Virus record (IMG/VR): IMGVR_UViG_3300042350_003263
Coordinates: 1-56,902 of that record
Length of the DNA stretch: 56,902 nucleotides
Direction: 5' to 3' (one strand)
From: a virus
Taxonomy: Duplodnaviria; Caudoviricetes
Shown: piece by piece, positions 1-11,279 of the stretch
How positions within the stretch are numbered: position 1 is the first letter of the stretch
How the letters are laid out: the number at the start of each line of letters is the position of its first letter
The notes under the pieces: model-generated
What the model was told of the DNA's origin: nothing
The model's input: only the letters and a program-made list of their open reading frames with translations
Database searches by the model: none
Program-made: the position numbers and the translations under genes

Positions 1-36
1 CGAAAGTAGTCAGTTCGATTCTGACACACACCTCCA
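1..36 (+). tRNA. 3' part of a tRNA, truncated by the window edge
   Basis: T arm GTCAG-TTCGATT-CTGAC followed by acceptor strand and TCCA. Confidence 0.75.
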
Positions 37-41
37 ATATT

Positions 42-113
42 GGTGACACGGAACGGTTCCGACTTGGGTCTCATAAGCCCGAAGAGATGGTTCGAGTCCA
101 TCTGGCACCACCA
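42..113 (+). tRNA. tRNA-Met/Ile2 (CAT)
   Basis: Anticodon loop CTCATAA, T arm GATGG-TTCGAGT-CCATC, ACCA end; atypical D arm. Confidence 0.8.
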
Positions 114-138
114 AAAATAATTCTAACAAAATGAAAAT

Positions 139-173
139 AGGGGGTTTACAAACCATAACCTATACCTTATATT
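139..173 (+). promoter_or_regulatory. Phage early promoter (GGGGTTTACA-N17-TATATT)
   Basis: TTTACA 145-150, TATATT 168-173; the motif recurs about 11 times and resembles T4 early GTTTAC(A). Confidence 0.8.
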
Positions 174-201
174 ACTACTATAAGGAACGAAAGGGAAGAA
201 C

Positions 202-366
202 ATGATCGGTTTCGCGGAAATTAAGGTTAAGACCGAAGCTGAACTGAAGAAAGATTGGACCATGTATACCTGCAATGGTTGGATTGGTATCAACAAAACA
301 ACTGGAAAGAAAATCAAGTGTGGAACGTATCATGCACTCTTGACAAAACTTTCCATCGAAGACTAG
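202..366 (+). CDS. Hypothetical protein, 54 aa (MIGFAEIKVK...)
   Basis: ATG after AAGGGA SD, just downstream of the early promoter; ends TAG. Confidence 0.65.
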   Translation: MIGFAEIKVKTEAELKKDWTMYTCNGWIGINKTTGKKIKCGTYHALLTKLSIED

Positions 367-375
367 GATAAGGAA

Positions 376-522
376 ATGAAACGAAAACATAAGGAACTAC
401 CGAAGGCACGAAACCCATTCGTCCTTCATCTTTCCAAACGTCCTTCGGGCGCACACGGGAAGACTAAAAAAGCGGAACGCCGTGATGAGAGAATGGCGCT
501 TCGAGATTGGATCCGTAGCTGA
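376..522 (+). CDS. Small basic protein, 48 aa (MKRKHKELPKARNPFVLHLSKRPSGAHGKTKK...)
   Basis: AAGGA SD; RNP...GAH.K motif; stop codon lies inside tRNA-Lys. Confidence 0.65.
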   Translation: MKRKHKELPKARNPFVLHLSKRPSGAHGKTKKAERRDERMALRDWIRS

Positions 523-584
523 GGTGGTTTTAGCACCCGACTTTTAATCGGAGTACGTCGGTTCGAGTCCGACCGGATCCACCA
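509..584 (+). tRNA. tRNA-Lys (TTT)
   Basis: GGATCCG/CGGATCC acceptor, loop CTTTTAA, ACCA. Confidence 0.92.
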
Positions 585-713
585 TTACTTTGATGATATA
601 CTGACCTGGCAAACCAGGCACAGGGCGCGACTGTGGGGGGTTCGATTCCCATTAAGTATGGTACTTGAACAAGCGACGGCGGCTCGGAGGTTCGATTCCT
701 TCACAATCCACCA
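583..713 (+). ncRNA. Acceptor piece of a permuted two-piece tRNA-like RNA (T arm plus ACAATCC-A-CCA)
   Basis: T arm 686-702, acceptor 3' strand 703-709, CCA 711-713; 583-604 is complementary (20/22) to 1179-1200. Confidence 0.6.
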
Positions 714-740
714 AATTTAACTCTATTATGAGAAAATACA

Positions 741-902
741 ATGGAAGAAGTTATTAGACAGGCTGCTCTGGCATTGGGTTCTTCCTATTACCTTATGGAA
801 GATTACAATTTTCAAAAAAGACTAGGATGGCACACATATTGGGATCCTGATATTGTTATAGCCAGAGCAGCAAAAAATGTTAAGTCGTTAATCTGGTGTT
901 AA
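741..902 (+). CDS. Hypothetical protein, 53 aa (MEEVIRQAAL...)
   Basis: Open frame filling the gap between RNA elements; weak SD. Confidence 0.5.
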   Translation: MEEVIRQAALALGSSYYLMEDYNFQKRLGWHTYWDPDIVIARAAKNVKSLIWC

Positions 903-969
903 TGGTTGTGATCGTCAAATTGATTTTGACTATCTTCCATACCAGGTTCTACAACTACCCACACCACCA
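895..969 (+). ncRNA. Non-canonical ACCA-ended structured RNA
   Basis: GGTGT/ACACC terminal stem plus ACCA, internal GTCAAA/TTTGAC hairpin; no T loop. Confidence 0.4.
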
Positions 970-971
970 AT

Positions 972-1046
972 GCAGACTTAGCTTAGTGGTAGAGCGTCAC
1001 CTCGACACGGTGAGGGTCAAAGGTTCAAATCCTTTAGTCTGCACCA
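972..1046 (+). tRNA. tRNA-Val (GAC)
   Basis: Cloverleaf; TCACC-TCGACAC-GGTGA (C33 unusual); ACCA. Confidence 0.88.
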
Positions 1047-1054
1047 GTAATATT

Positions 1055-1134
1055 GCGTCTGTATACCCTCACGCTACGAACGTGTAGAAAGGTTAACTGG
1101 ACACATGGGGGTTCGAATCCTCCCAGGCGCACCA
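1055..1134 (+). tRNA. Non-canonical tRNA-Arg (ACG), D arm missing or displaced
   Basis: GCGTCTG/CAGGCGC acceptor, CACG-CTACGAA-CGTG arm only about 8 nt after the acceptor, long segment before the T arm, ACCA. Confidence 0.7.
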
Positions 1135-1141
1135 AATACTT

Positions 1142-1200
1142 GGGTTGTAAATGGAGAGCATTTGGGTTCGATTCCTCATCAGTATATCTTCTAAGTAATG
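1142..1200 (+). ncRNA. 5' piece of the permuted two-piece tRNA-like RNA
   Basis: GGGTTGT 1142-1148 pairs with ACAATCC 703-709 (G3-U70); 1179-1200 pairs with 583-604. Confidence 0.55.
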
Positions 1201-1204
1201 AATA

Positions 1205-1270
1205 TCCCGTGACTGAGTAGCATTGAGCCTAGGCAATGCAGGGGTGGTTTGATTCCATCACACGGGGCCA
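1205..1270 (+). ncRNA. Degenerate tRNA-like RNA
   Basis: TCCCGTG/CACGGGG stem plus CCA, T-like arm GGTGG-TTTGATT-CCATC, GCATTG/CAATGC hairpin, no D arm. Confidence 0.5.
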
Positions 1271-1284
1271 ATATAGAAAGAAGT

Positions 1285-1470
1285 ATGATGAAAGACGATC
1301 TGAAACTTATTCGCCAAAAGATTCGTGCTGCTAACAAGCTTCCTGCTAACAATCCTGTTGAATATAATCTGAAACGGGATATACTTATGCACTGGAGAGG
1401 GGAACAGTACAAGCTCAAATACTGTATTGAGATGGATAAGTTGATGTTAGAAATACGGACCGGTAGCTGA
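1285..1470 (+). CDS. Hypothetical protein (MMKDDLKLIRQK...)
   Basis: ORF track 1249..1470 trimmed to ATG 1285; stop lies inside tRNA-Lys(CTT). Confidence 0.55.
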   Translation: MMKDDLKLIRQKIRAANKLPANNPVEYNLKRDILMHWRGEQYKLKYCIEMDKLMLEIRTGS

Positions 1471-1534
1471 GGTGGTTTTAGCGGCGGGCTCTTAATCCGC
1501 GACAACGTGAGTTCGAGTCTCACCCGGTTCACCA
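1457..1534 (+). tRNA. tRNA-Lys (CTT)
   Basis: GCGGG-CTCTTAA-TCCGC, T arm, ACCA. Confidence 0.92.
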
Positions 1535-1540
1535 AATATT

Positions 1541-1618
1541 TGTCCTAGAGTCGTCCAGGTGACGGCACCTGGCTGTTAACCAGGATGGAGAGAGGTTCGA
1601 GTCCTCTTAGGACAGCCA
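1541..1618 (+). tRNA. tRNA-Asn (GTT)
   Basis: CCTGG-CTGTTAA-CCAGG, GCCA end. Confidence 0.9.
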
Positions 1619-1622
1619 ATAC

Positions 1623-1698
1623 GCGGATGTAGCTCAGTTGGTAGAGCACGTGCCTGAAGAGCATGGTGTCAGGAGTTCGATTCTCTTCATCCGCACCA
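1623..1698 (+). tRNA. tRNA-Phe (GAA)
   Basis: CGTGC-CTGAAGA-GCATG, canonical cloverleaf. Confidence 0.93.
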
Positions 1699-1746
1699 AT
1701 TGTGACAGATCCGGCTGCACATTAAAAGAATTTCCGGCTGAATTTT

Positions 1747-1821
1747 TGTGGTGTAGCTCAGTGGTAGAGCAATCCCCTGATAAGGGATAGGTCGGTGGTT
1801 CAATCCCACCCACTACAACCA
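1747..1821 (+). tRNA. tRNA-Ile (GAT)
   Basis: ATCCC-CTGATAA-GGGAT, canonical cloverleaf. Confidence 0.92.
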
Positions 1822-1826
1822 AAATT

Positions 1827-1918
1827 GGGAGTGTCAAATAAGGCTATGCTGGTGCTAACAGCGGACTGTAAATCCGTTCCTGAAGAGGCAAGTTGTTCGA
1901 TTCAACACACTCCCACCA
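1827..1918 (+). tRNA. tRNA-Tyr (GTA), atypical D region
   Basis: GCGGA-CTGTAAA-TCCGT, long variable arm, GGGAGTG/CACTCCC, ACCA. Confidence 0.82.
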
Positions 1919-1925
1919 ATATAAC

Positions 1926-2002
1926 GTCCCCATAGATTACGTTGGCTAGATCATCGCCCTTTCAAGGCGAAGAAGCGGGATCGACACCCGCTGGGGATAC
2001 CA
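1926..2002 (+). tRNA. tRNA-Glu (TTC)
   Basis: TCGCC-CTTTCAA-GGCGA, ACCA. Confidence 0.9.
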
Positions 2003-2008
2003 ATCAAT

Positions 2009-2083
2009 GCCTCCATGGTGTAACGGTTTGCTCGATCCCGTGACATGGGGAAGGTCTAAGTTCGACTCTTAGTGGAGGCACCA
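2009..2083 (+). tRNA. tRNA-Val (GAC), divergent copy
   Basis: GCCTCCA/TGGAGGC acceptor, loop GTGACAT, T arm CTAAG-TTCGACT-CTTAG. Confidence 0.75.
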
Positions 2084-2088
2084 ACAAC

Positions 2089-2162
2089 GCTGCTATAGTA
2101 CAATGGTAATACACGCCCTTGGTACGGGTGAAACGGAAGTTCGATTCTTCCTAGCAGCACCA
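2089..2162 (+). tRNA. tRNA-Thr (GGT)
   Basis: CGCCC-TTGGTAC-GGGTG, ACCA. Confidence 0.92.
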
Positions 2163-2164
2163 TT

Positions 2165-2199
2165 TAGGGGTTTACATGTGGCCAAGTTTAGATTATAGT
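2165..2199 (+). promoter_or_regulatory. Phage early promoter
   Basis: AGGGG-TTTACA 2171-2176, N17, TATAGT 2194-2199. Confidence 0.75.
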
Positions 2200-2220
2200 G
2201 ATCCTACAAAGGAGACTAAG

Positions 2221-2526
2221 ATGAACATCTCGATCGATTACGATGATACCTACACCAAGGATCCACTTCTATGGAACTGGTTTGCACAGGAAGCGTTGAA
2301 CCGTGGACATAAAGTCTACTGTGTATCTGCTCGTGGAACTCAGCACATGGATGATCCGAAGATGACGATCGGTCGAGTGATCGGTGCAGAGAATTGCTTT
2401 GGAACTGGTCTTCGTCCTAAGCGACACTTTATGCATCATGTTCACAAGATCGACATCGATGTATGGATCGACGATATGCCAGAGATGATCGTTGATCCTG
2501 AAATCGAAGGTTTGTATATGCCATAA
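2221..2526 (+). CDS. Minimal HAD-superfamily phosphatase-like protein
   Basis: ISIDYDDT (DxDxT), VSAR, WIDD motifs; GGAGA SD. Confidence 0.75.
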   Translation: MNISIDYDDTYTKDPLLWNWFAQEALNRGHKVYCVSARGTQHMDDPKMTIGRVIGAENCFGTGLRPKRHFMHHVHKIDIDVWIDDMPEMIVDPEIEGLYMP

Positions 2527-2527
2527 T

Positions 2528-2600
2528 GCTTCTGCCGGCGGACCCGGTGGCGGGTCTACGAAGCCTGCTTACGAATGTTCAACTCATTCCAGGAGCGCCA
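2528..2600 (+). tRNA. tRNA-Arg (ACG), atypical D arm
   Basis: CGGGT-CTACGAA-GCCTG, GCTTCTG/CAGGAGC, GCCA. Confidence 0.8.
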
Positions 2601-2744
2601 ATAAAACGTTGTAGCGAAGGTCGACATTTGCTATGATGAGAATGCTGCATACGCCTTAGGACTACTCGGCGTATCGGGTAACACGGTCTGAGTCTTAGCT
2701 CGGATGCAGGGGTAAGAGTCCCAATTGGAGATGTCCTGAAATTT

Positions 2745-2819
2745 GCTTCCATAGCTCAACGTAAGAGCGCCAGTCTTCGAAACTGAGGGTTGAAGGTTAG
2801 AGTCCTTCTGGGAGCACCA
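2745..2819 (+). tRNA. tRNA-Arg (TCG)
   Basis: CAGT-CTTCGAA-ACTG, ACCA; T loop TTAGAGT. Confidence 0.85.
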
Positions 2820-2826
2820 ATATAAT

Positions 2827-2901
2827 GCTGGATAAGGTGTAATGGTTGCATCCCTCACTGTGACTGAGGTGGACGTGGTTCGATCCCACTATCCAGTACC
2901 A
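2827..2901 (+). tRNA. tRNA-His (GTG), no G-1, A73
   Basis: CCTCA-CTGTGAC-TGAGG; preceded by T; ends ACCA. Confidence 0.9.
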
Positions 2902-2906
2902 ATAAT

Positions 2907-2981
2907 GCGGAGGTAGCTCAGTGGTAGAGCTTCTCGTTGCCAACGAGATGGCCGTGGGTTCGAATCCCATTCTCCGCTCCA
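2907..2981 (+). tRNA. tRNA-Gly (GCC)
   Basis: TCTCG-TTGCCAA-CGAGA, TCCA. Confidence 0.93.
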
Positions 2982-2986
2982 AATAT

Positions 2987-3063
2987 GTCCTTGTAGACCA
3001 ATTGGTAGAGTCTCGTGGTTGAGGGCCACGAAGTTGGAGGTTCGAATCCTCTCAGGGACACCA
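2987..3063 (+). tRNA. tRNA-Leu (GAG), short variable loop
   Basis: CGTGG-TTGAGGG-CCACG, 77 nt, ACCA. Confidence 0.88.
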
Positions 3064-3070
3064 AATACGT

Positions 3071-3144
3071 TGCCCGTTCGTCTAACGGTAGGACGCTAGG
3101 CTCTGACCCTAGTAATCGCGGTTCGAATCCTCGACGGGCATCCA
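3071..3144 (+). tRNA. tRNA-Gln (CTG)
   Basis: CTAGG-CTCTGAC-CCTAG, U1-A72. Confidence 0.92.
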
Positions 3145-3156
3145 AAAAAATTCATT

Positions 3157-3192
3157 TAGGGGATTTACAACCCAATCTGAATAGCTTATATT
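3157..3192 (+). promoter_or_regulatory. Phage early promoter upstream of the Y-like RNA/DUF2828 unit
   Basis: TTTACA 3164-3169, N17, TATATT 3187-3192. Confidence 0.8.
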
Positions 3193-3214
3193 ACTACTAT
3201 CGAAACAATGAACA

Positions 3215-3292
3215 TAGGATCGTTACAGCATCTTAGAGCTCGTTAGAGCATTTGACTTGTAATCAAACGGAAAGCCGAAAGGCGCGATCCTG
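3215..3292 (+). ncRNA. Y-RNA-like element A (D-like arm plus Thr-UGU anticodon arm)
   Basis: TAGGATCG-TTACAGCA...CGATCCTG closing stem; GCTC-GTTA-GAGC; TTTGA-CTTGTAA-TCAAA; GCC-GAAA-GGC. Confidence 0.7.
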
Positions 3293-3309
3293 ATTAAACT
3301 ATGAAACCA

Positions 3310-3397
3310 TAGGTTGGTTTCAGCAACTAAACCCGGGAATGGTTCCCAATTTGTCTTGTAAACAAACTTAGCGGTTCGAATCCGTAAACCCAACCTG
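3310..3397 (+). ncRNA. Y-RNA-like element B (D, Thr-UGU anticodon and T arms)
   Basis: TAGGTTGG-TTTCAGCAA...CCAACCTG; GGGAATGGTTCCC; TTTGT-CTTGTAA-ACAAA; GCGG-TTCGAAT-CCGT. Confidence 0.72.
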
Positions 3398-3409
3398 AAA
3401 GGAAATATT

Positions 3410-4840
3410 ATGTCTTTTGTAAACGCAGTTAAAAATGCTAACTACTCTAAGCCCGCTCGTACCGCTAACGGTATGAAGGCTAATGCTACTTCCAAGTCCA
3501 AGGTGCTTGACTTGTTCGGCGTTATTGGTTCCGCTCGTGGTTCTGATATCTCCAAGCAGTTCGTTGCTTCTATGACTGAGAACCTTGATCTGACTGTCCG
3601 TATGCTGCTTTGGGCTCGTGACATTCGTGGAGGTGCTGGCGAACGTGCTACCTTCCGTAACTTGCTTGCTGCGCTTGAGTCTACCGACCCAACTCTTGCT
3701 GGTAAGCTGATGCACAAAGTTCCAGAGCTTGGCCGTTGGGATGACTTGTTCACTTACAAAGATCCTCTCAACCGTCGTAAGGCGTTTGCGTTCATTCGTG
3801 AAGCGCTAGCAAACCAGGACGGTCTCTGCGCGAAGTGGATGCCACGTAAAGGTCCTGTTGCTGTTGAACTGACTAAGTTCCTTGAACTTACTCCAAAACA
3901 GTATCGTAAGCTGATCGTAGGCTTGACCAACGTTGTTGAGTCTAAGATGTGTGCTAAGGAGTGGGAAGCTATCAACTTCTCTCACGTTCCTTCCGTGGCA
4001 TCCGCTCGCTACCAGAAGGCTTTCGGCCGTAACGCAAAGGAAGCATACTCTGCTTACATTGCCGAACTGAAAAAGCCTGTTGCTGAACGTGCAGATCCTA
4101 AGGTCAAGATCAACGCCGGTGCAGTTTATCCATATGACGTAGTTAAGTCTGTTGTCAAGGGTAATGCAGCAGTTGCTGATGAGCAGTGGAAGGCTTTGCC
4201 TAACTACATCGGCGATGCGAAGATCATGCCTATGGTCGACGTATCTGGTTCTATGGGTAGCCTCGGTTACTCTTACGGAAGTCAGCTTTCTCCTATCGAC
4301 ATTGCAGTCTCTCTGGGTCTGTACTGTGCTGATAAGAACACCGGCGACTTCAAGGACCTGTTCTTGACCTTCTCTGGTAAGCCTAAGATGGAACACCTGA
4401 AAGGTACTCTGTCTCAGAAGATGACTCAGATGAGCCGCGCCAACTGGGAAATGAACACCAATCTACACGCTGCTTTTGACGAGATTCTTAAGATCGCTGT
4501 TAAGGGTAACGTTGCAGAAAGTGACATGCCTCAGATGCTGTTGATTCTATCTGACATGCAGTTTGACTCTTGCACTAAGTACGATGACTCTGCTATGCAG
4601 ATGATCAAGCGTAAGTACAACGATGCAGGCTACAATGTGCCGAAGATTGTCTTCTGGAACGTTTCCATGTATGGTAAAGCAGATGGCAACACCCCAGTTC
4701 GTTTCGACGAACGTGGTACTGCTCATATCTCTGGGTTCAGCCCAGCTATCATGAAGAGCGTTCTTGCGAACGACCTTGAGGACTACACCCCATACAATGT
4801 TATGGTAAAGGCTCTTAACGTCGAGCGTTATAACTACTAA
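3410..4840 (+). CDS. DUF2828-family helical-repeat plus vWA protein (Ro60/TROVE-like RNA-binding protein)
   Basis: RDIRGGAGER, GRWDDL, AKWMPR, VPSVA motifs; vWA MIDAS DVSGSM, SDMQFD, IVFWN; AAAGGAAA SD. Confidence 0.85.
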   Translation: MSFVNAVKNANYSKPARTANGMKANATSKSKVLDLFGVIGSARGSDISKQFVASMTENLDLTVRMLLWARDIRGGAGERATFRNLLAALESTDPTLAGKLMHKVPELGRWDDLFTYKDPLNRRKAFAFIREALANQDGLCAKWMPRKGPVAVELTKFLELTPKQYRKLIVGLTNVVESKMCAKEWEAINFSHVPSVASARYQKAFGRNAKEAYSAYIAELKKPVAERADPKVKINAGAVYPYDVVKSVVKGNAAVADEQWKALPNYIGDAKIMPMVDVSGSMGSLGYSYGSQLSPIDIAVSLGLYCADKNTGDFKDLFLTFSGKPKMEHLKGTLSQKMTQMSRANWEMNTNLHAAFDEILKIAVKGNVAESDMPQMLLILSDMQFDSCTKYDDSAMQMIKRKYNDAGYNVPKIVFWNVSMYGKADGNTPVRFDERGTAHISGFSPAIMKSVLANDLEDYTPYNVMVKALNVERYNY

Positions 4841-4843
4841 TTG

Positions 4844-4863
4844 GTTAGGCCTTCGGGCCTAAC
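4844..4863 (+). terminator. Stable cUUCGg hairpin after DUF2828 (weak terminator or processing/stability hairpin)
   Basis: GTTAGGCC-TTCG-GGCCTAAC with a poor U tract. Confidence 0.55.
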
Positions 4864-4872
4864 TTCCTCAAT

Positions 4873-4972
4873 TAGGATCGTTGCCGCAACAAAGTTGATA
4901 GTGCAATGGTAGCACATTTTCCTTCTAAGAAAAAGTCGGGGGTTCGATTCCCCCTCAAAGAAAGCGATCCTG
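4873..4972 (+). ncRNA. Y-RNA-like element C with an embedded tRNA-Arg(TCT)-like cloverleaf and no CCA
   Basis: TAGGATCG-TTGCCGCAA...CGATCCTG; GTGC-AATGGTA-GCAC; TTTTC-CTTCTAA-GAAAA; GGGGG-TTCGATT-CCCCC; 4-bp TTGA/TCAA pseudo-acceptor. Confidence 0.75.
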
Positions 4973-4977
4973 TTTAG

Positions 4978-4985
4978 TATAAATA
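4978..4985 (+). promoter_or_regulatory. T4-type late promoter TATAAATA
   Basis: Exact gp55 consensus upstream of the SNase gene. Confidence 0.65.
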
Positions 4986-5010
4986 ACCTAACATTAGTTA
5001 GGAGAATACT

Positions 5011-5454
5011 ATGAAAAAATTATTACTATCGATTGCACTTATGTTTGTAGCATCTGGTGCAATTGCCGAAGTGAAGAAGCCGAAAGGTGTCATTCACGAT
5101 TTAAAGATTATTCGAATTATTGATGGTGATACTGTTGAGATTGAAGCGCCATTCTTAATTGAACCTTTGCCCAAGAAACTTTCTGTTCGCGTTTGGGGCG
5201 TAGATACACCTGAAAAAGGTGGACGTGCCAGCTGCGAAAAAGAAGCAGAAATGGGTGCAGCTGCAAGCAAGTTCACAAAGGATCTTGTTGCTAACGCTAA
5301 GACTACCCAGATCAATCTCTATGAATGGGATAAGTTTGGTGGTCGTGTACTCGGTGACGTAATCATCGATGGTAATAGCTTAACTGCTATGTTGATCGAA
5401 AAAGGTTACGCTAGAGAATACTATGGCGATGCAAAAAAATCATGGTGTGAATGA
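5011..5454 (+). CDS. SNase/thermonuclease-family nuclease with signal peptide
   Basis: IIDGDT, VRVWGVDTPE, DKFGGRVLG motifs; N-terminal signal sequence. Confidence 0.88.
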   Translation: MKKLLLSIALMFVASGAIAEVKKPKGVIHDLKIIRIIDGDTVEIEAPFLIEPLPKKLSVRVWGVDTPEKGGRASCEKEAEMGAAASKFTKDLVANAKTTQINLYEWDKFGGRVLGDVIIDGNSLTAMLIEKGYAREYYGDAKKSWCE

Positions 5455-5466
5455 AAAAAGTTCATT

Positions 5467-5502
5467 TAGGGGGTTTACAATCATAGATACATATCTTATA
5501 TT
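5467..5502 (+). promoter_or_regulatory. Phage early promoter
   Basis: TTTACA 5474-5479, TATATT 5497-5502. Confidence 0.8.
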
Positions 5503-5562
5503 ACTCCTATAAGAACAAACAAACGCTCTTTGACAATTTAGAAGAAACAGAATGAAATAATT

Positions 5563-5639
5563 TCTGTTTTCACATGCATATACGGCGAAAGGAACTCTGC
5601 AGAGTGGCCCGGTAACTGATGTATGCAGTTGAAAACAGA
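5563..5639 (+). ncRNA. Long hairpin ncRNA candidate
   Basis: TCTGTTTTCA/TGAAAACAGA and TGCATAT/GTATGCA nested stems. Confidence 0.45.
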
Positions 5640-5643
5640 GTTT

Positions 5644-5721
5644 TGCGGGGTAGACTGGAGGTGGTTCCAGCACGGTCTCATAAGCCGATTACGGAGGTTC
5701 GATTCCTCCCCACCGCAACCA
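5644..5721 (+). tRNA. tRNA-Met (CAT), initiator-like acceptor
   Basis: TGCGGGG start, CGGT-CTCATAA-GCCG, T arm, ACCA; one bulge in the acceptor. Confidence 0.82.
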
Positions 5722-5723
5722 AG

Positions 5724-5811
5724 TTTAGACTGTAGAAGTAATCACCTCTTGTGAAGGTGTCCCTGATCCGTCATCGCCGGCAGGTCAAAGCTGCAAACAG
5801 CCCAGTCTAAA
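5724..5811 (+). ncRNA. Structured ncRNA candidate with a UGU anticodon-like arm
   Basis: TTTAGACTG/CAGTCTAAA closing stem; CACCT-CTTGTGA-AGGTG; GCTG-CAAA-CAGC. Confidence 0.5.
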
Positions 5812-5909
5812 ACAAAAGCCAACGTCCTAGACATTGCGAAACCTCGGGCTTAATACGAGTTATAGATAGCTAGGAGACCAGCCATGAGGGTGCAGATTGG
5901 CAAAGATAC

Positions 5910-6001
5910 GGGAGGTTAACTCAGCTGGGCTGGGACTCGCCTTGAAAGCGATGGGTACGGTTAGTAGCCGTATGGAGTTCGATTCTACCATCCTCCCGCC
6001 A
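5910..6001 (+). tRNA. tRNA-Ser (TGA)
   Basis: TCGC-CTTGAAA-GCGA, long variable arm, GCCA. Confidence 0.85.
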
Positions 6002-6006
6002 TAATT

Positions 6007-6070
6007 TAGGATCGGTTCAGCAAACCAAAACGCTAACATATTGAAGTCTTAGCGGACCAAAACGATCCTG
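6007..6070 (+). ncRNA. Y-RNA-like element D (minimal)
   Basis: TAGGATCG-GTTCAGCAA...CGATCCTG with CGCTAA/TTAGCG inner hairpin. Confidence 0.7.
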
Positions 6071-6078
6071 TTTAATTT

Positions 6079-6154
6079 GGGCTCTTAGCTCAGCTGGGAG
6101 AGCGCCTGCCTTGCAAGCAGGAGGTCAGGAGTTCGATCCTCCTAGGGTCCACCA
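6079..6154 (+). tRNA. tRNA-Ala (TGC)
   Basis: CCTGC-CTTGCAA-GCAGG, G3-U70, ACCA. Confidence 0.94.
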
Positions 6155-6172
6155 ATACAACGGAGAAAGCAA

Positions 6173-6256
6173 ATGATTGCTTATATTTTTCTGGTAATGC
6201 TTGTAGTCGGAGTTCTCTGGCACACTGATGGTCCAGGAAAAGATCATTGGCTATAG
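6173..6256 (+). CDS. 27-aa single-TM peptide (MIAYIFLVMLVVGVLWHTDGPGKDHWL)
   Basis: GGAGA SD, hydrophobic stretch, fills a tRNA spacer. Confidence 0.5.
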   Translation: MIAYIFLVMLVVGVLWHTDGPGKDHWL

Positions 6257-6260
6257 AATT

Positions 6261-6336
6261 GGCCTGTTGGTAAAGTGGTTAATACGTCTGCCTGTCACGC
6301 AGAAGAACGCGGGTTCGATCCCCGCACAGGTCGCCA
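6261..6336 (+). tRNA. tRNA-Asp (GTC)
   Basis: TCTGC-CTGTCAC-GCAGA, GCCA. Confidence 0.93.
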
Positions 6337-6339
6337 ACT

Positions 6340-6427
6340 TACGATGGTTGTGTTAGAGTCTTGGTTGTCTTAACACGTAAACTAGCAAGAGGTACGGGTC
6401 GCTACCGTCGCTCACTATTCCATCGTA
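6340..6427 (+). ncRNA. Structured ncRNA candidate, possible pseudoknot
   Basis: TACGATGG/CCATCGTA closing stem; GTGTTA/TAACAC hairpin whose loop TCTTG can pair with the downstream CAAGA. Confidence 0.45.
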
Positions 6428-6436
6428 TTCAATAAT

Positions 6437-6511
6437 GCGGAATTAGCTCAGTGGTAGAGCCCCTCGTTTACACCGAGGTTGTCGGGAGTTCGACCCTCTC
6501 ATTCCGCACCA
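6437..6511 (+). tRNA. tRNA-Val (TAC)
   Basis: CCTCG-TTTACAC-CGAGG, ACCA. Confidence 0.93.
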
Positions 6512-6518
6512 ACTACAT

Positions 6519-6595
6519 GCCCATGTAGGCCAATTGGTAGAGTCACTGCGCTTAGAACGCAGGTGTTGGGGGTTCGAGTCCCTCCATGGGCACCA
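6519..6595 (+). tRNA. tRNA-Leu (TAG), short variable loop
   Basis: CTGCG-CTTAGAA-CGCAG, 77 nt, ACCA. Confidence 0.9.
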
Positions 6596-6610
6596 AAAAG
6601 GATAATTTAT

Positions 6611-6931
6611 ATGATAACTGCAAATAGAAGTGAATGGGAAGATTTTGTATCTGGTGATGAATCTCTTGATACGACTCACCCGTTGATCGATCGATTTGAT
6701 TATTTTTCTACTTCGCACGATGTTTCTATTCTTGTAAATGGAAAAACTTACACAAAAATTACCAGAGCGTTATATGAAGATAACGAATTAAATGCAATGC
6801 ATATAAATCCAGAAAAAGCAGAAAAAGATATTCTCTATAAAATATGCAAAGTAATAGAAATAGACAAGAATGATCATTCAAAAACCAAAATCGGTCATAA
6901 GATCATTTATTTTAAAGATGTTACCATTTAA
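6611..6931 (+). CDS. Hypothetical protein (MITANRSEWEDF...)
   Basis: ORF track 6479..6931 trimmed to the ATG after the tRNA-Leu; AT-rich. Confidence 0.6.
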   Translation: MITANRSEWEDFVSGDESLDTTHPLIDRFDYFSTSHDVSILVNGKTYTKITRALYEDNELNAMHINPEKAEKDILYKICKVIEIDKNDHSKTKIGHKIIYFKDVTI

Positions 6932-6935
6932 GATT

Positions 6936-7125
6936 TAGAATGTTTACAGCAACAAAACAAAACTATCGGTTCGATTCCGATACTCCCCACCATGGATACA
7001 CTGCGACCACTCGTTATATCCACTAGAGTGCACGCTAGACGCTAAAGGATGAACTCAGTGTATCTTTGATGGGGAGTATGGCAAGGTGCCGCTAAGAGCA
7101 ATCTTAGCTTTCCCCAAACATTCTG
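6936..7125 (+). ncRNA. Y-RNA-like element E with YrlA-type permuted tRNA domain
   Basis: TAGAATGT-TTACAGCAA...ACATTCTG; T arm ATCGG-TTCGATT-CCGAT, ACTCCCC-ACCA, insert, GGGGAGT, D-like GGC-AAGGT-GCC, GCTAAGA/TCTTAGC. Confidence 0.72.
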
Positions 7126-7147
7126 TTATATAATATAGGAGAGCACG

Positions 7148-7381
7148 ATGCGCGATAGAGCTTTTCGACGATTTCAAGAACTTAAGAAGAAGCAGTGGGT
7201 TCGAAAGTTTTTCTCTAAACATCGAGCTCGTGATCTAACCGATGCCGATGTTGGAGTCTATGCTCATACCCCGCATCTGTGTTCCTGCTACGTATGTGGC
7301 AATCCTCGCAAGTGGTGGGATCAAAAGACTCTTCAAGAAAAGAAGATGGAAGACTTTTACAAAGCAACTGATGAAGACTAA
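7148..7381 (+). CDS. Small basic Cys-motif phage protein
   Basis: AGGAGA SD; CSCYVCGNPRK motif. Confidence 0.72.
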   Translation: MRDRAFRRFQELKKKQWVRKFFSKHRARDLTDADVGVYAHTPHLCSCYVCGNPRKWWDQKTLQEKKMEDFYKATDED

Positions 7382-7382
7382 T

Positions 7383-7470
7383 GGATCGTGGGCAGGATGG
7401 TAATGCAGCAGATTGCTAATCTGTAGAACGAGCAATCGTTCACTGGGTTCGATTCCCAGACGATCCGCCA
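7383..7470 (+). tRNA. tRNA-Ser (GCT)
   Basis: GCAGA-TTGCTAA-TCTGT, long variable arm, GCCA. Confidence 0.92.
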
Positions 7471-7519
7471 ATAAAGATCTGAAACAGGATCTAAAAGAAC
7501 AATAAAATTGAAGGTGATT

Positions 7520-8992
7520 ATGGACGGTATTATTTTTTCTGGATTTACTTTTTCTGCGACAAGAAGGGGAAATATCCAATCTCCACAATTAGGTCCTTAT
7601 AGAATGAGAACCTATCTAGAAGAAAATGGTTATACTTGCGACATTATAGATTGGTTTGACTTTTGGACAGAAGAAGAAATATTACAACTAATAAAAAACC
7701 GTTACCACGAGAATCTAAAATTTATTGGGTTTAGTGTTACATTCCAAAAAATTCAGAATATCAGTACAGATTTACTGAAAAAAATTAAAACGTCTTTTCC
7801 TAGTTTGAAAATAGTCTTTGGAAGTCAAGAACCTAATGAAACTCTTTGTGGGGAACATCCGCAAAAATCAAGATATATTGATATCGTTTTCTATGGTCAT
7901 TCTGAAGTAGCATTTCTAGAATATATTAAACACCTTGATGGTAAACCAAGTAAGCACAAAGCAGAGAAATTTTCTACTGGCGTTGATTATGTAATATCTC
8001 CAAATGTGTTACCATATACAGATACATCTAACCTTACTACTATCTGGAAACCTGATGATCCTTTAAAATATTTTAAAGGTGGTAGTGTAGAGATATCTCG
8101 GGGTTGTATGTTTAAATGTAAATTCTGTTATTCCCCTCTTATTGGAAGGAAAAGAGCAGATTATACAAGATCTGTAGAAAATTTAGCAGATGAGTTAAAA
8201 AGGAACTACGATTTATTCGGTATCAACCATTATGTTTTTTCAGATGACACACTGAATGAGAGTACTGAGAAACTACTTAATATAAAAAAAGCTATTGAGC
8301 TATCAAGAGTGGATATTACTTTCACTGCATATATAAGATACGAAATCTTAAATACTCATTTCGATCAAGTAAAGATTATGTCTGATATGGGATGGATAGG
8401 TGGAATACTTGGTCTTGAAACGTTTAATCCTGAGTCAAGAAAAGCTATTGGCAAAGGTCTTACTACAGAAAAGATTTTAGATCTTCTTTATAGGGTAAAA
8501 CAGTTTAATAAGGATCTGCATTTATCTTCAGGTTTTATCGTAGGTTTACCTGGTGAAACAGAACAAACAACTACTGAATACTTTCAGGAATTTCTTAAGC
8601 TGAATAAGGATCATGAATATCTAGATTCTTTTTATTGGACACCTCTTTATATCTTAGAACCATATAAGTATCTTAACAGTATCTTTACAAAAGAAGCTAG
8701 TTCTTATGGATATAGTGTTATACCTGGTGCTGGTAAATGGACTAACAATAAATATGAAATAAAATCATGGGATGAAGCTTATCAAATATCTAATCGTTTG
8801 AACAATATGTGTAGGGATAACTTAGGAACCTCTGTTCAAATTTCAGAAGTTTTAAGTTTAGGTGTAGATAGAAATAAATTCAGACATATAAGATTTGGCG
8901 AAGAGATGAGAGAGCTCGTCAAATATAAAAAAGAAAAGATATGGAAATCTTATAGAGAAGAGAAATTAAATTATAAGATTTCCCGGGTGTAG
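7520..8992 (+). CDS. B12-binding-type radical SAM protein
   Basis: EISRGCMFKCKFC (CxxxCxxC), DDTLN, GLETF, GFIVGLPGET; N-terminal B12-binding-like region. Confidence 0.85.
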   Translation: MDGIIFSGFTFSATRRGNIQSPQLGPYRMRTYLEENGYTCDIIDWFDFWTEEEILQLIKNRYHENLKFIGFSVTFQKIQNISTDLLKKIKTSFPSLKIVFGSQEPNETLCGEHPQKSRYIDIVFYGHSEVAFLEYIKHLDGKPSKHKAEKFSTGVDYVISPNVLPYTDTSNLTTIWKPDDPLKYFKGGSVEISRGCMFKCKFCYSPLIGRKRADYTRSVENLADELKRNYDLFGINHYVFSDDTLNESTEKLLNIKKAIELSRVDITFTAYIRYEILNTHFDQVKIMSDMGWIGGILGLETFNPESRKAIGKGLTTEKILDLLYRVKQFNKDLHLSSGFIVGLPGETEQTTTEYFQEFLKLNKDHEYLDSFYWTPLYILEPYKYLNSIFTKEASSYGYSVIPGAGKWTNNKYEIKSWDEAYQISNRLNNMCRDNLGTSVQISEVLSLGVDRNKFRHIRFGEEMRELVKYKKEKIWKSYREEKLNYKISRV

Positions 8993-9059
8993 CTCAGTTT
9001 GGTATAGCGCTTGGTTTGGGACCAAGATGTCGTGGGTTCGATTCCTACTACATCCGCCA
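8983..9059 (+). tRNA. tRNA-Pro (TGG) with a misregistered or chimeric acceptor, possibly a pseudogene
   Basis: CTTGG-TTTGGGA-CCAAG; 3' end TACATCCGCCA does not pair in canonical register. Confidence 0.6.
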
Positions 9060-9082
9060 AAAATAATTCAGGAAAATGAAAA

Positions 9083-9118
9083 TAGGGGGTTTACATTCCA
9101 GGTTACATAGCTTATATT
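9083..9118 (+). promoter_or_regulatory. Phage early promoter
   Basis: TTTACA 9090-9095, TATATT 9113-9118. Confidence 0.8.
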
Positions 9119-9138
9119 ACTCTTATCAACAGAGGAAC

Positions 9139-9543
9139 ATGACAATGTACACTTTCGATGAAACGATCGTCTCCGACCTCCACAAAGAAGCTTATGGCAC
9201 GCGTCCTACCTCTTTCTGGTGGCAGTGCTGGAATGAAGCTACTGACGCAGAAAAGCAGGCAGAGTGGGATGATCTGCTCGAAGTTCATGCTCAAACTATG
9301 GATCGCGAAGCTCAAGAGCAGATCGCTGCTATCAACTCTTTCGAGCTTGAAATCGCGACCGCGCTCGACGTAGGCGCTCGCTCGCGCGAAGATGCCGTTC
9401 GCTGGATCGTTCAGGGTTTGGAACTTGATGACGTCGATATGATGTACGGTGGTAGTGCCATCTGCTATCGTAAAGGTTTGCCTTATCGTATGGCCGCTAT
9501 GTTTGACAATGCAATCAACTATCTTCGCGCTGAGGTGATCTAA
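9139..9543 (+). CDS. Conserved phage early hypothetical protein (MTMYTFDETIVSDLHKEAYGTRP...)
   Basis: GAGGA SD after early promoter; SDLHK.AYG.RP motif seen in T4-like phages. Confidence 0.75.
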   Translation: MTMYTFDETIVSDLHKEAYGTRPTSFWWQCWNEATDAEKQAEWDDLLEVHAQTMDREAQEQIAAINSFELEIATALDVGARSREDAVRWIVQGLELDDVDMMYGGSAICYRKGLPYRMAAMFDNAINYLRAEVI

Positions 9544-9544
9544 T

Positions 9545-9763
9545 ATGAACGTACAAACTGTCTCCGTTTCCGATCTTTCGTTGGATATCCTCCTGAATGA
9601 ACTTCATCTTCCTTTGGTAGATGGTAAAGCAAATCGGGAAAAGATCGAAGAAGCAATTACGATTGGAATGCTCGAAGGTGCATTGGGTTACGTAGACGAA
9701 GAAACTGTCAATCTTGCTATTGGTATGATTGATGATATTATTGTAGAATATCGCGTTCAATAG
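9545..9763 (+). CDS. Hypothetical protein
   Basis: GAGGTG SD, tight coupling to the upstream ORF. Confidence 0.7.
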   Translation: MNVQTVSVSDLSLDILLNELHLPLVDGKANREKIEEAITIGMLEGALGYVDEETVNLAIGMIDDIIVEYRVQ

Positions 9764-9785
9764 CGCATATATAAAATAAGATTAT

Positions 9786-9861
9786 TTCCTGATAGCTCAG
9801 TTGGTAGAGCAGATGACTGTTAATCATCGGGTCCGTGGTTCGAGCCCACGTCAGGGAGCCA
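9786..9861 (+). tRNA. tRNA-Asn (GTT)
   Basis: GATGA-CTGTTAA-TCATC, GCCA. Confidence 0.94.
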
Positions 9862-9865
9862 ATAT

Positions 9866-9942
9866 CGGAGTATAGCACAGTTTGGTAGTGCGCTAGTTTT
9901 GGGTACTAGAGGTCGATGGTTCGAATCCTTCTACTCCGACCA
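9866..9942 (+). tRNA. tRNA-Pro (TGG)
   Basis: CGGAGTA/TACTCCG, CTAGT-TTTGGGT-ACTAG, ACCA. Confidence 0.92.
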
Positions 9943-9948
9943 AAAATT

Positions 9949-10014
9949 TAGGATCGGTTCAGCAAACAAAAACGCTAAATCGTATTGGATGTCTTAGCGG
10001 ACAAAACGATCCTG
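9949..10014 (+). ncRNA. Y-RNA-like element F (paralog of D)
   Basis: TAGGATCG-GTTCAGCAA...CGATCCTG; near-identical to 6007-6070 except the apical loop. Confidence 0.7.
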
Positions 10015-10042
10015 TTATAGATAAACAGTAGGAAGGTTCACA

Positions 10043-10309
10043 ATGGAAGAAAATAAAGAAATTATCGAAGATGGGTCTTTAAAGAATGTACATGCAGAAC
10101 TAGTCAAAAAGGGTGATAAAGTGGCAGTTCACTTCACCTATTGGTTTGCTTGGTTCTGGGGCATTATTAGTGCCATTTATTTCTTTGCAGTGACATTCAT
10201 TACAGTGCCACCAGCTGGAGAAAACTTTGCCAATATTATCCTAGGCTTCTTGCTTGGTACTGCGGTTTCTACTATCATAAACTTCTTCTTTGGTAGTAGC
10301 GAGAAATAA
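10043..10309 (+). CDS. Two-TM membrane protein, holin-like
   Basis: Two hydrophobic helices and a C-terminal FFFGSS motif; close to the endolysin. Confidence 0.65.
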   Translation: MEENKEIIEDGSLKNVHAELVKKGDKVAVHFTYWFAWFWGIISAIYFFAVTFITVPPAGENFANIILGFLLGTAVSTIINFFFGSSEK

Positions 10310-10384
10310 GTCCCTAGAGCATGATGGTTATGCACGCGCCTCTAAAACGCTGAAATGCAGGTTCAATTCCTGTTAGGGACACCA
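10310..10384 (+). tRNA. Amber suppressor tRNA (anticodon CTA)
   Basis: GTCCCTA/TAGGGAC-ACCA, GCAT/ATGC D stem, loop CTCTAAA on a weak 3-bp stem, T arm GCAGG-TTCAATT-CCTGT. Confidence 0.75.
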
Positions 10385-10544
10385 AGAATCCGACTTTATG
10401 AGTCCATGTGGAAGAGTAACCGAGACAACTTCTGCATTCTCATATTCACTAACGCTGTATATGCTGGCAAAGCCGATAAATACCTTCTCAGGTTGTGCAT
10501 ATGTTAGAGCCGGATAACTAACCTTTAATAAAGGAGAAATACAA

Positions 10545-10583
10545 ATGAAGAGATATCACTTGTAGATTACTAGACCGCCCTAA
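10545..10583 (+). promoter_or_regulatory. Leader peptide MKRYHL-[TAG]-ITRPP-TAA and putative translational attenuator
   Basis: Strong AAGGAG SD; CCTAAATTGG 10579-10588 is the exact complement of CCAATTTAGG 10615-10624, which overlaps the SD of the next gene. Confidence 0.65.
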
Positions 10584-10632
10584 ATTGGGCCTTACATTAT
10601 GAAGAACCAATGAACCAATTTAGGAGAATAAA

Positions 10633-11064
10633 ATGTCTGTAGAACTTAAAATTAAATCTAAACACCTTTCAGAAGAAGCTCGTATCATTCGTTTTGAAGA
10701 GCGTAAAGTAAAGAGACAAATGAACTGGCACAAAGACCGTCAGCAACCATTTGAAAAAGAAGCTTCGCTTTATCATTCTTTGAACGCTCACCGTCGTTGG
10801 GAAGTGCGTAACGAGAATCGTGCTACCTTCCTTGCTCGTGCTTATCTTGCTGGTAAAGAATATAAGACCATTGAGAATAAGTGCCACGATCCTATGGTGC
10901 TTCGTGCTTACATCCTTCCTCGTGTATGCGAGATGGTAAACAAGTACGGTCCAACTGCTGGCAAACTGAGTAAGAAATGGAACAGAGAGCGTATGCGTTA
11001 TGAGTATGATGCAGAACCTTGGAAAGCTCACTGCGATAAAGTGAAAGCTTGGACTGAAAGTTGA
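10633..11064 (+). CDS. Conserved basic phage protein of unknown function (MSVELKIKSKHLSEEARIIR...)
   Basis: TAGGAG SD, 143-aa ORF with phage-like codon use. Confidence 0.8.
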   Translation: MSVELKIKSKHLSEEARIIRFEERKVKRQMNWHKDRQQPFEKEASLYHSLNAHRRWEVRNENRATFLARAYLAGKEYKTIENKCHDPMVLRAYILPRVCEMVNKYGPTAGKLSKKWNRERMRYEYDAEPWKAHCDKVKAWTES

Positions 11065-11074
11065 TATATACTAT

Positions 11075-11162
11075 TTGGATGGATACTGCAACCAATTTGT
11101 AGGGGTAATAACCTACTGTTCAAGCGGTTAGATAGTATCATCGAAATCCACAGACCATCCAG
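11075..11162 (+). ncRNA. Possible Y-RNA-like element G
   Basis: TTGGATGG-ATACTGCAA...CCATCCAG matches the family stem and motif with compensatory changes. Confidence 0.5.
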
Positions 11163-11276
11163 TCTTACAACTTGTGGATAGTACGTGATATGAGTCTAAC
11201 CCACGTTACACTAGCGTGAAGTGATCCTTGGCTCCGGCTCTATGGATCGGTGTGACAGCTCGGAGAGACGGGCGCT
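11163..11276 (+). ncRNA. Structured ncRNA candidate ending GTGACAGCTCGGAGAGACGGGC
   Basis: GATCC/GGATC and GCTCG/CGGGC stems; GTGGAT can pair with ATCCAC near 11146. Confidence 0.4.
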
Positions 11277-11279
11277 TAT

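Follow-up and report, generated by a model that had tools for sequence, protein, structure and literature searches.

Organization of the interval at 583–1200

The window analyzed here, meaning the whole stretch of DNA under study, is a 56.9-kb virus record (IMG/VR record IMGVR_UViG_3300042350_003263, positions 1 to 56,902; completeness estimate 31%) from a lake-water phage of the Caudoviricetes, and its first 12.4 kb hold a tRNA array on the + strand. Within this array, the interval at 583–1200 is very probably, in origin and anatomy, a chimera of two small-RNA genes, designated F and S. The names F, S, X (the head of S) and R1 (a covariance model of F, obtained from an alignment of seven contiguous members) were coined in this analysis. 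The parts of the interval were assigned as follows, with lengths given in nucleotides (nt) and base pairs (bp):

583–604, +: 5′ strand of the constant S stem (inverted-repeat search; the same 20-mer in 24 viral-contig stretches)
605–635, +: S head X, two hairpins read from the sequence, CCTGG-CAAA-CCAGG at 605–618 and CACAG-GGCGCGA-CTGTG at 619–635
636–650, +: T-loop hairpin A, read as a chimera to which X contributes the 5′ strand and F the 3′ strand; crossover word GGGTTCGATTCC at 638–649
651–713, +: 3′ part of F, with an AAGTA-TGG-TACTT hairpin at 654–666, GCGACGG at 673–679 and GCTC at 682–685, then the T arm, the acceptor 3′ strand, A73 and CCA
686–702, +: T arm of F, GGAGG at 686–690, TTCGATT at 691–697 and CCTTC at 698–702
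703–713, +: acceptor 3′ strand and tail of F, ACAATCC at 703–709, A73 at 710 and CCA at 711–713
1142–1162, +: 5′ part of F, with the acceptor 5′ strand GGGTTGT at 1142–1148, AA, ATGGA (D-loop-like, with GG), GAGC at 1156–1159 (pairing with GCTC at 682–685) and ATT
1163–1178, +: T-loop hairpin B, read as a chimera to which F contributes the 5′ strand and X the 3′ strand; crossover word at 1164–1175
1179–1200, +: 3′ strand of the constant S stem (inverted-repeat search; 31-member stem table)

The 3′ two-thirds of F (636–713) therefore lie upstream of its 5′ third (1142–1178), with a spacer of 428 nt (714–1141) between them. The acceptor 5′ strand pairs with 703–709 at all seven positions, G3-U70 included, and completes a 7-bp acceptor with A73 and CCA, as an earlier note made on the letters of this DNA had described. 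A 7-nt partner with G-U allowed is expected at 0.375^7 per site, or about one match per 1,000 sites by chance, so that the two halves are assigned to each other because of their homology to contiguous relatives, and not because of this chance-level pairing. The model R1 scored 60.9 bits on 628–713, and 1142–1178 aligned to R1 positions 1–35, while an R1 scan of the 56.9 kb revealed no intact F elsewhere in the window. A contiguous F on the metagenome contig L164 is identical to the window at 34 of 34 positions for 1142–1175 (L164 2627–2660) and at 77 of 77 for 638–714, and the contiguous F of L146 is 97% identical in the 5′ part and 98.7% in the 3′ part, with one difference in each. These relatives bear out the proposal that one permuted tRNA-like RNA is encoded in two pieces that belong together, its 3′ part in the T arm/ACCA piece and its 5′ part in the GGGTTGT piece. 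The further remark that the T-arm piece has no local 5′ half was nearly right, as CGACTGT at 628–634 pairs at only five of seven positions in the covariance model.

Identity to F sets in at position 638 and stops at 1175, and both sites share the 12-nt word GGGTTCGATTCC (638–649 and 1164–1175). The arrangement probably arose by a reciprocal exchange within this word, which is common to the T loop of X and to the extra T-loop hairpin of F. Such an exchange would join the 5′ part of X to the 3′ two-thirds of F, and the 5′ third of F to the 3′ part of X; F would thereby become circularly permuted, with an open reading frame (ORF), a tRNA-Val and a tRNA-like gene between the two junctions. In the window lineage, the head X would have consisted of two hairpins and a T arm before the event. 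Judged from the comparison with its contiguous relatives, F is truly circularly permuted at the DNA level.

Gene F, a tRNA-like RNA without an anticodon

Gene F was found first through a blastn match in Limnohabitans phage DC31, where it is a contiguous, unannotated RNA of about 95 nt adjoining a tRNA-Met, and which offers a cultured system carrying F. Further copies were obtained by pattern scans in viral contigs and in 48 metagenome stretches. In cellular DNA the F pattern was seen in 0 of 32.2 million contigs and in none of 185,579 prokaryote genomes. A total of 26 distinct contiguous relatives were collected, with lengths of 95–102 nt, and R1 gave 39 matches in 60 loci. The order of elements in F is a 7-bp acceptor, a D-loop-like AAAUGGA, a GAGC/GCUC helix, a hairpin with a T-loop sequence, a GUA-UGG-UAC hairpin and a T arm. 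The family pattern reads acceptor, AAAUGGnGAGy, T-loop hairpin, GUA-UGG-UAC hairpin, RCUC, T arm and acceptor, with the helix in the form GAGY/RCUC.

The proposed structure was evaluated on the seven members, in which standard pairs occupy 96.3% of the cells, against 36–53% when the partners are slid. On 28 distinct rows the values were 95.3% and 46–56%, and double changes were observed at 16 of the 23 pairs, a number that 0 of 500 shuffles reached; this larger alignment is model-fitted and hence biased towards the proposed structure. Gene F has no anticodon arm and carries in its place a hairpin with the loop TTCGATT. ARAGORN made no tRNA call at 585–713, at 1142–1200 or on the DC31 F, and on the latter the Rfam tRNA model RF00005 scored 19.9 bits (cut-off 29), with no other Rfam family matching.

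The acceptor is paired at all seven positions in all 26 distinct contiguous members. The pair 3:70 is G-U in 14 of them, A-U in ten and something else in two. In the same 14 members G3-U70 is kept together with A73 while the acceptor pairs 4–6 covary, yet the RNA reads no codon. Because G3-U70 stays constant in this subgroup as its neighbouring pairs covary, an alanine identity is a fair inference for the subgroup to which the window belongs, and not for the whole family; the alanine determinant named in the earlier note would hold within that scope. Our best guess is that F is a substrate mimic which would be charged by AlaRS in the G3-U70 subgroup. The two T-loops of F and its two invariant UGG elements suggest two contacts like those of the tRNA elbow. 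The distribution of F is patchy, with one weak match in 22 S-bearing loci.

A second class of phage tRNA-like genes was noted alongside F, at L131, L133, L134, L138, L148, L157, L160–L162, L166–L168, L171, L181, L183, L185 and L188. In this class a module of about 55 nt replaces the anticodon loop, consisting of AGGGTAGTAT, a T-loop hairpin and GAAAGTATGGTAC, followed by ACGTAAATCCGCA. By eye, a canonical D arm is present in at least L133 and L138 and an anticodon stem in L131, L134 and L138; the other members were grouped by how far the module lies from the local 5′ acceptor strand (28–55 nt). The T-loop hairpin and GUAUGGUAC are common to this class and F, and the class is without G3-U70.

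Gene S, a constant stem with a variable head

The strands at 583–604 and 1179–1200 are complementary at 20 of 22 positions (91%) over a distance of 574 nt, which both the sequence and an inverted-repeat search confirmed for the pairing put forward earlier. Among the 19 inverted pairs found in 1–13000, this is the sole one with at least 20 nt and at least 90% complementarity. A 20-mer of the 5′ arm, with up to three mismatches allowed, matched only 583–602 (+) and 1181–1200 (−), where shuffles predict 0.02. The same 20-mer was recovered in 26 loci, and 22 of these carry the partner strand, 21 at 40–108 nt downstream and one, the window-type L054, at 574 nt. The stem starts at the CA of a tRNA's CCA in every locus, and the next tRNA-type gene begins only a few bases beyond it. 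Most heads have no relation to one another (17 distinct ones among the 21 loci with the partner at 40–108 nt), and two S copies with different interiors are found on single contigs in two cases, L202/L203 and L211/L217. A total of 31 distinct S-RNAs were assembled, including variants met near Ro60-like genes. The stem is thus near letter-for-letter constant over unrelated phage contigs, while the head differs almost every time. The window displays the same stem, the start at the CA of a tRNA's CCA, the tRNA-type gene after it and a variable head, and S would be a cassette set flush between tRNA genes.

In the window, the S helix is plain and interrupted only by U-U mismatches at S-family positions 9 and 12. 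Across the 31 distinct S-RNAs, double changes were observed at stem positions 5, 6, 8, 17, 18, 19 and 20, the one-sided changes comprise nine of the G-U type against none of the A-C type, and the U-U at position 12 is kept in 29. At position 17 the window has U-A where 28 of the 31 have C-G, a double change that preserves the pair. In L164 the same stem follows tRNA-Lys(UUU) and encloses an unrelated head of 76 nt, with two compensatory pair changes relative to the window. Because of the double changes, the bias towards G-U and the retained U-U, the stem is best described as an RNA helix on the tRNA strand. The long-range pairing is thus most probably the stem of S itself, and older than the split of F, because 30 further small RNAs, whose heads are unrelated, are closed by this stem as well. 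The earlier idea that the pairing exists to hold the halves of F together is therefore not supported; the conservation in relatives that the earlier note required of the pairing does hold, but for the S stem and not for a clamp, and two relatives (L126 and L180) have the first F piece without the second. As a guess, the S helix may serve in processing or insulation and free a variable small RNA from the array.

An Rfam search with one S-RNA (E up to 10) gave no match, and blastn with one S-RNA against cultured phages returned only a 24-nt chance match. In cellular genomes the S 20-mer had two matches, both within coding DNA and judged to be chance, as each lacked a partner strand and had no tRNA close by. 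A mini-ORF in the S 5′ arm, AUG AUA YAC UGA, was considered and rejected: a stop terminates 11 of the 18 copies, compared with an expected share of about 3/8, and no ribosome-binding site was seen. Several variants of the cassette were also encountered. At 12689–12790 (+) of L245, both U-U mismatches are closed to U-A/A-U and three more pairs are changed on both sides, which gives a perfect 20-bp helix. The S 5′ arm occurs without a partner in the available downstream sequence (<1,500 nt) from 9394 onward (+) in L199 and from 6076 onward (+) in L206; the L199 arm continues straight into the 3′ part of a tRNA-like sequence, which looks like a further rearrangement of the S cassette.

The empty site and the recurrence of the arrangement

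A contig of the DNA run X13 (depth 68.7) matches the window over 500–638 and is joined there to 1165, the joint having 11 shared letters; it extends as far as 1199, where the start of a tRNA-Lys(CUU)-like gene follows at once. It is 99% identical to the window, with one differing letter in 139 nt. By the sequence of its joint, this contig is S with an uninterrupted head X, that is, the empty-site or recipient form. The head rebuilt from the joint has a predicted fold in which the 22-bp stem, two hairpins and a T arm meet in a perfect four-way junction (−40.6 kcal/mol, z −5.9). No contig of X13 is listed over 645–673, which is a coverage hole and not evidence.

The arrangement itself was found again elsewhere. 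It is identical throughout in the viral contig L054, the right junction is spanned by a 523-nt contig of the run X10 from another study, and the left junction with the ORF recurs in L126 (a 55-kb contig) and L180 (a whole 11.7-kb contig), which have no right junction and differ in their downstream boundaries. Among viral contigs, an exact 19-mer of X matched those of L054 and L126 and no others. At least 0.6 of the sampled window words were present in 13 runs from 10 studies (lake metagenomes of 2020–2025, with possible source samples excluded); the contigs of four runs were aligned to the window, and the others are represented by word share only. Neither L126 nor L180 has a second F piece or an intact F in the available sequence. 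L180 retains the window's U at stem position 17 and has lost its compensating partner, which weakly suggests that it derives from a form with both arms. The changes T599C and A676C in L126 were considered as decay and rejected, C being the common state at stem position 17, and the position matching the other change also differs in L144. Two further joints in X10 (598 to 1185 and 602 to 1181, with the intervening sequence not known) may be the same stem with other heads. Among the RNA-labelled runs the window word shares were small; X16, which is labelled RNA and flagged as probably DNA, gave pieces of 35–41 nt with 3–6 mismatches over tRNA-type parts and two pieces of 100% identity over 786–971.

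That the arrangement is an assembly artefact, a chimeric contig produced through the repeated T-loop word, has a negligible likelihood. The 12-nt repeat common to both junctions would invite such an error, but 12 nt is shorter than the usual assembly k-mers, and the identical arrangement in the independent contig L054, the X10 contig across the right junction and the left junction seen again in L126 and L180 all argue for a real structure.

Several points weigh against the derivation of the interval from an exchange between F and S. The empty-site form is known from one contig in one run, aligned at an 85% likeness setting, and X13 has no listed contig across the window-type junctions, so that the abundance ratio of the two forms is not set. 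Homologues of X occur only in the window-type contigs and the X13 contig, with none by blastn among 50,697 phage records. The runs were available as contigs, from which RNA ends are not readable. The events could have run in several orders: a circle insertion and two unequal crossovers are both possible routes, and L126 and L180 could descend from the window form or have given rise to it. That both halves are identical to L164 could reflect a very recent event, which is silent on function, or continued selection, which would favour a working two-piece RNA.

Does the split RNA work?

RNase P-type and 3′-end processing of the flanking tRNA-type genes would free fragments of approximately 585–713 and 1142–1200, and these could re-anneal through 22 + 7 bp. 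Co-folding of the two fragments predicted both intermolecular helices at −73.2 kcal/mol, with a gain of −27.1 kcal/mol compared with −5.4 ± 3.0 for 200 shuffles. That the re-annealed pair would still act as an alanine-accepting F can be entertained only tentatively; otherwise F would be disabled, and the arrangement would be a tolerated by-product of shuffling in the tRNA array.

Under the tentative alternative of exaptation, the origin would be the same, and the S stem would now serve as a clamp, so that annealing rebuilds the acceptor/T-arm helix and the GAGC/GCUC helix of F in an RNA charged by host AlaRS that acts like contiguous F. The 29 intermolecular base pairs and a co-fold gain far above the shuffles are consistent with this, as are the tRNA-type processing sites that adjoin all four ends, the lack of any difference between either half and the contiguous F of L164, the double change at stem position 17 that keeps the pair (U-A for the usual C-G), the native F connectivity kept in the piece after hairpin A, and the recurrence of the arrangement, by word share, in lake metagenomes of 10 studies. 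Against it stand L126 and L180, which have the first piece without the second and no intact F in the available sequence, the insertion by the split of a 22-bp helix and three extra hairpins at the core junction of F, the L164 identity, which may reflect merely a recent event, and the patchy distribution of F itself. We therefore regard a working two-piece RNA as doubtful. A function for the first piece alone, with CGACTGT (628–634) as a weak local 5′ acceptor strand and the GGGTTGT piece as an unrelated remnant, is very improbable: R1 did align 628–634 as the 5′ strand with five of seven pairs, and L126 and L180 retain only this piece, but two mismatches, one of them at pair 1-72, would lie in a 7-bp stem that all 26 distinct contiguous members pair in full, the D-loop-like AAAUGGA would be missing along with the GAGC strand, and 628–634 doubles as the 3′ strand of the CACAG/CTGTG hairpin.

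A quite different view would make the interval a mobile DNA element, namely a miniature transposon or cassette with terminal inverted repeats, a cargo of 574 nt and no RNA helix. Constant arms with variable interiors over many phage contigs, two of which carry two copies each, would be expected of such an element, and terminal repeats bound by one protein would covary too. However, the nine G-U against no A-C one-sided stem changes fit an RNA helix on the tRNA strand, the U-U at position 12 is kept in 29 of 31, the start is fixed at the CA of a tRNA's CCA with the next tRNA-type gene within a few bases, and no target-site duplication was seen (no search for a transposase beside the copies was made), all of which makes this explanation improbable. 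The earlier note had linked the locus to transfer-messenger RNA (tmRNA), and a purpose-built two-piece relative of tmRNA would have a flanking helix evolved to join the acceptor and coding pieces and would act with SmpB on stalled ribosomes. In its favour, permuted tmRNA genes likewise begin with the CCA piece and have a G3-U70/A73/CCA acceptor, and the topology of F resembles the tRNA-like domain of tmRNA, with a 7-bp G3-U70 acceptor, a T arm, CCA, a D-loop without a D stem and a helix with one strand just before the T arm. The mRNA-like domain (resume codon, tag frame and pseudoknots) has no counterpart in F; at only 95–102 nt, contiguous F is too short to accommodate a tag frame or pseudoknots, and it is fully accounted for by five short helices. 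ARAGORN called no tmRNA among 25 genes in the window, and no tmRNA-type model of Rfam reached its gathering score there. The best score was 21 bits for tmRNA_permuted (gathering 47), which is really the T arm of tRNA-Lys, and a permissive scan yielded 10.9 bits for tmRNA and 10 bits for beta_tmRNA. The contiguous F of DC31 matched no tmRNA model at E up to 10, and the helix is shared with 30 other RNAs with unrelated heads. The relationship to tmRNA is thus not upheld, and a purpose-built relative is extremely improbable.

Returning to the chimera of F and S, its boldest extension would combine clamped fragments that work as an alanine-accepting two-piece tRNA mimic with S-RNAs that form a new class with a constant stem and a hypervariable head, being either Y-RNA-like partners of the Ro60-fold protein of the array or decoys in the conflict between phage and host. 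This is unlikely as a whole; if true, the window would hold the first split tRNA-like RNA in a virus, few mutations from its birth.

Comparison with known systems

Two-piece permuted tmRNA genes occur in Alphaproteobacteria, some Betaproteobacteria and Cyanobacteria (Rfam alpha_tmRNA, beta_tmRNA, cyano_tmRNA and tmRNA_permuted). The window F resembles them in having the T arm/ACCA piece upstream of the 5′ acceptor piece, G3-U70, A73 and CCA, no anticodon, and pieces that would pair after processing. It differs in matching none of the models, in its parent of about 98 nt, in the lack of a tag frame or pseudoknots, in being a recent accident of one lineage where the contiguous form is the rule, in its borrowed clamp helix and in the working tRNA genes of its spacer. 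In the permuted tRNA genes of Cyanidioschyzon merolae, a bulge-helix-bulge cut and a circular RNA intermediate lead to a normal one-piece tRNA. These genes also have the 3′ half upstream of the 5′ half and flanks that pair and bring the outer ends together, but in the window no bulge-helix-bulge motif or enzyme is indicated, and the parent RNA is not a decoding tRNA. In Campbell-type recombination, integrative elements cross over in the segment of a tRNA gene from the T-loop to the 3′ end. As in that process, the crossover between F and S would fall within a T-loop stretch that is short and identical in both partners, and the inserted DNA would come to lie between two chimeric junctions; by contrast, no integrase is indicated, the identity spans 12 nt, both partners are small-RNA genes of one array and the product is permuted. 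The rnaC and rnaD genes of phage T4 (species 1 and 2) are, like F, non-decoding stable RNAs in a phage tRNA cluster, and rnaC ends in a T-arm-like hairpin. They were rejected as homologues of F, with R1 giving 14 bits on rnaC, below the 18–20 bits of T4 tRNAs, and no match on rnaD at E up to 10.

To our knowledge, permuted two-piece RNAs, such as the alphaproteobacterial tmRNA and the red-alga tRNAs, are known only as finished products. Here, related phages show together what are probably the parent (contiguous F), the recipient (uninterrupted S head), the product (the window) and partial derivatives (L126 and L180). A probable route to a two-piece RNA thereby becomes visible, in which a crossover in a 12-nt T-loop word meets a pre-existing helix as a ready clamp. 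F and S are two phage-only RNA families without an entry in Rfam 15, and they raise the question of what phage tRNA arrays do besides supplying tRNAs. No description of F, S or a permuted phage tRNA-like gene was found in the literature, in a comparison that did not extend to the supplementary tables of PMC10690425. That paper reports a catalogue of 8,495 candidate structured RNAs from IMG/VR, according to the part consulted, and may include F or S.

A Ro60-fold protein near the cassette

A protein of 476 amino acids (aa) is encoded within the array at 3410–4840 (+), 2.2 kb downstream. It matches DUF2828 and DUF7788 of Pfam and phrog_850 ('RNA-binding protein'), and it belongs to a family of at least 8,000 database proteins at E ≤ 1e-10. 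A Ro60/TROVE fold is predicted: the 13 best PDB matches of its fold model (mean pLDDT 73.5) are all Ro60/TROVE, with E from 7e-9 to 1e-5 and TM of about 0.5. Ro60 proteins are described as binding stem-closed, tRNA-like Y RNAs in the portions of PMC4201824 and PMC7824862 that were consulted. Bacterial Y RNAs (YrlA and Yrn1, bound by Ro60/Rsr), which also occur in phages, resemble S in having a stem of the 5′ and 3′ ends and a tRNA-like module with a T arm, whereas the Rsr-contact motif GNCGAAN0-1G is absent, by eye, from the S stem (PMC4201824, as far as consulted). Of 80 loci, 18 have an S within 8 kb of a Ro60-fold gene. However, TROVE and DUF7788 proteins are both missing from two S-bearing phage genomes with a completeness of at least 90%, and the complete DC31 genome has F and no Ro60-fold protein; a link of S or F to this protein is therefore not obligate and is offered as a lead only.

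The surrounding tRNA array

ARAGORN called 25 tRNA genes in the whole window, and Rfam at gathering score gave 27 matches, all of them tRNA. The genes next to and within the interval are as follows:

509–584, +: tRNA-Lys(UUU) (ARAGORN; Rfam tRNA 61 bits), the last two CCA bases of which (583–584) are the first two of the S stem
741–902, +: ORF of 53 aa in the spacer (ORF listing; no family match)
972–1046, +: tRNA-Val(GAC) within the spacer (ARAGORN; Rfam 69.2 bits)
1055–1134, +: tRNA-like gene that lacks a D arm and has a CTACGAA loop and a long variable region (Rfam tRNA 27 bits at 1055–1131, gathering score 29; no ARAGORN call; CCA at 1132–1134)
1204–1273, +: tRNA-like gene downstream of the S stem that lacks a D arm, with the acceptor TCCCGTG/CACGGGG, a 6-bp stem with the 8-nt loop AGCCTAGG, and TTTGATT as the loop of its T arm

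The spacer was earlier said to hold an ORF and three tRNA or tRNA-like genes; the ORF was confirmed, and two such genes were found, tRNA-Val and the sub-threshold one at 1055–1131. The ORF had no match in a PHROG search and occurs among viral contigs only in those of L054 and L126, and also on the metagenome contig L180. The loop CTACGAA of the 1055–1134 gene might present an ACG anticodon, and this gene has unannotated blastn matches of 60–62 nt (82–86% identity) in Streptomyces and Microbacterium phages. The gene at 1204–1273 was called by neither ARAGORN nor Rfam, and its 5′ end would fix the 3′ end of the S stem. A start resembling this gene (AATATCCCGTGACTGG) comes after the S-RNAs of L211 and L217.

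Two promoter-like sites of nearly the same sequence (TTTACA, 17 nt, then TATATT or TATAGT) lie at 145–173 and 2171–2199 (+), and no terminator-like site was found in 1–2400, for which reasons it is plausible that 202–2160 forms one transcription unit. Each promoter-like site is preceded by GGGG, and the pair brackets the first block of the array. A basic ORF of 48 aa (MKRKHKELPKARNPF...) is located at 376–522 (+), just 5′ of tRNA-Lys(UUU) and the S cassette; it is also present in L054, L126 and L180, is diverged in L146 and L164, and has no PHROG match. Further along the array, ARAGORN labelled the gene at 10310–10384 (+) as tRNA-Pyl, with a CUA anticodon (Rfam tRNA 48.4 bits), a possible amber suppressor, and a radical-SAM protein of 494 aa, which may be a tRNA-modifying enzyme, is encoded between tRNA genes at 7508–8992 (+).

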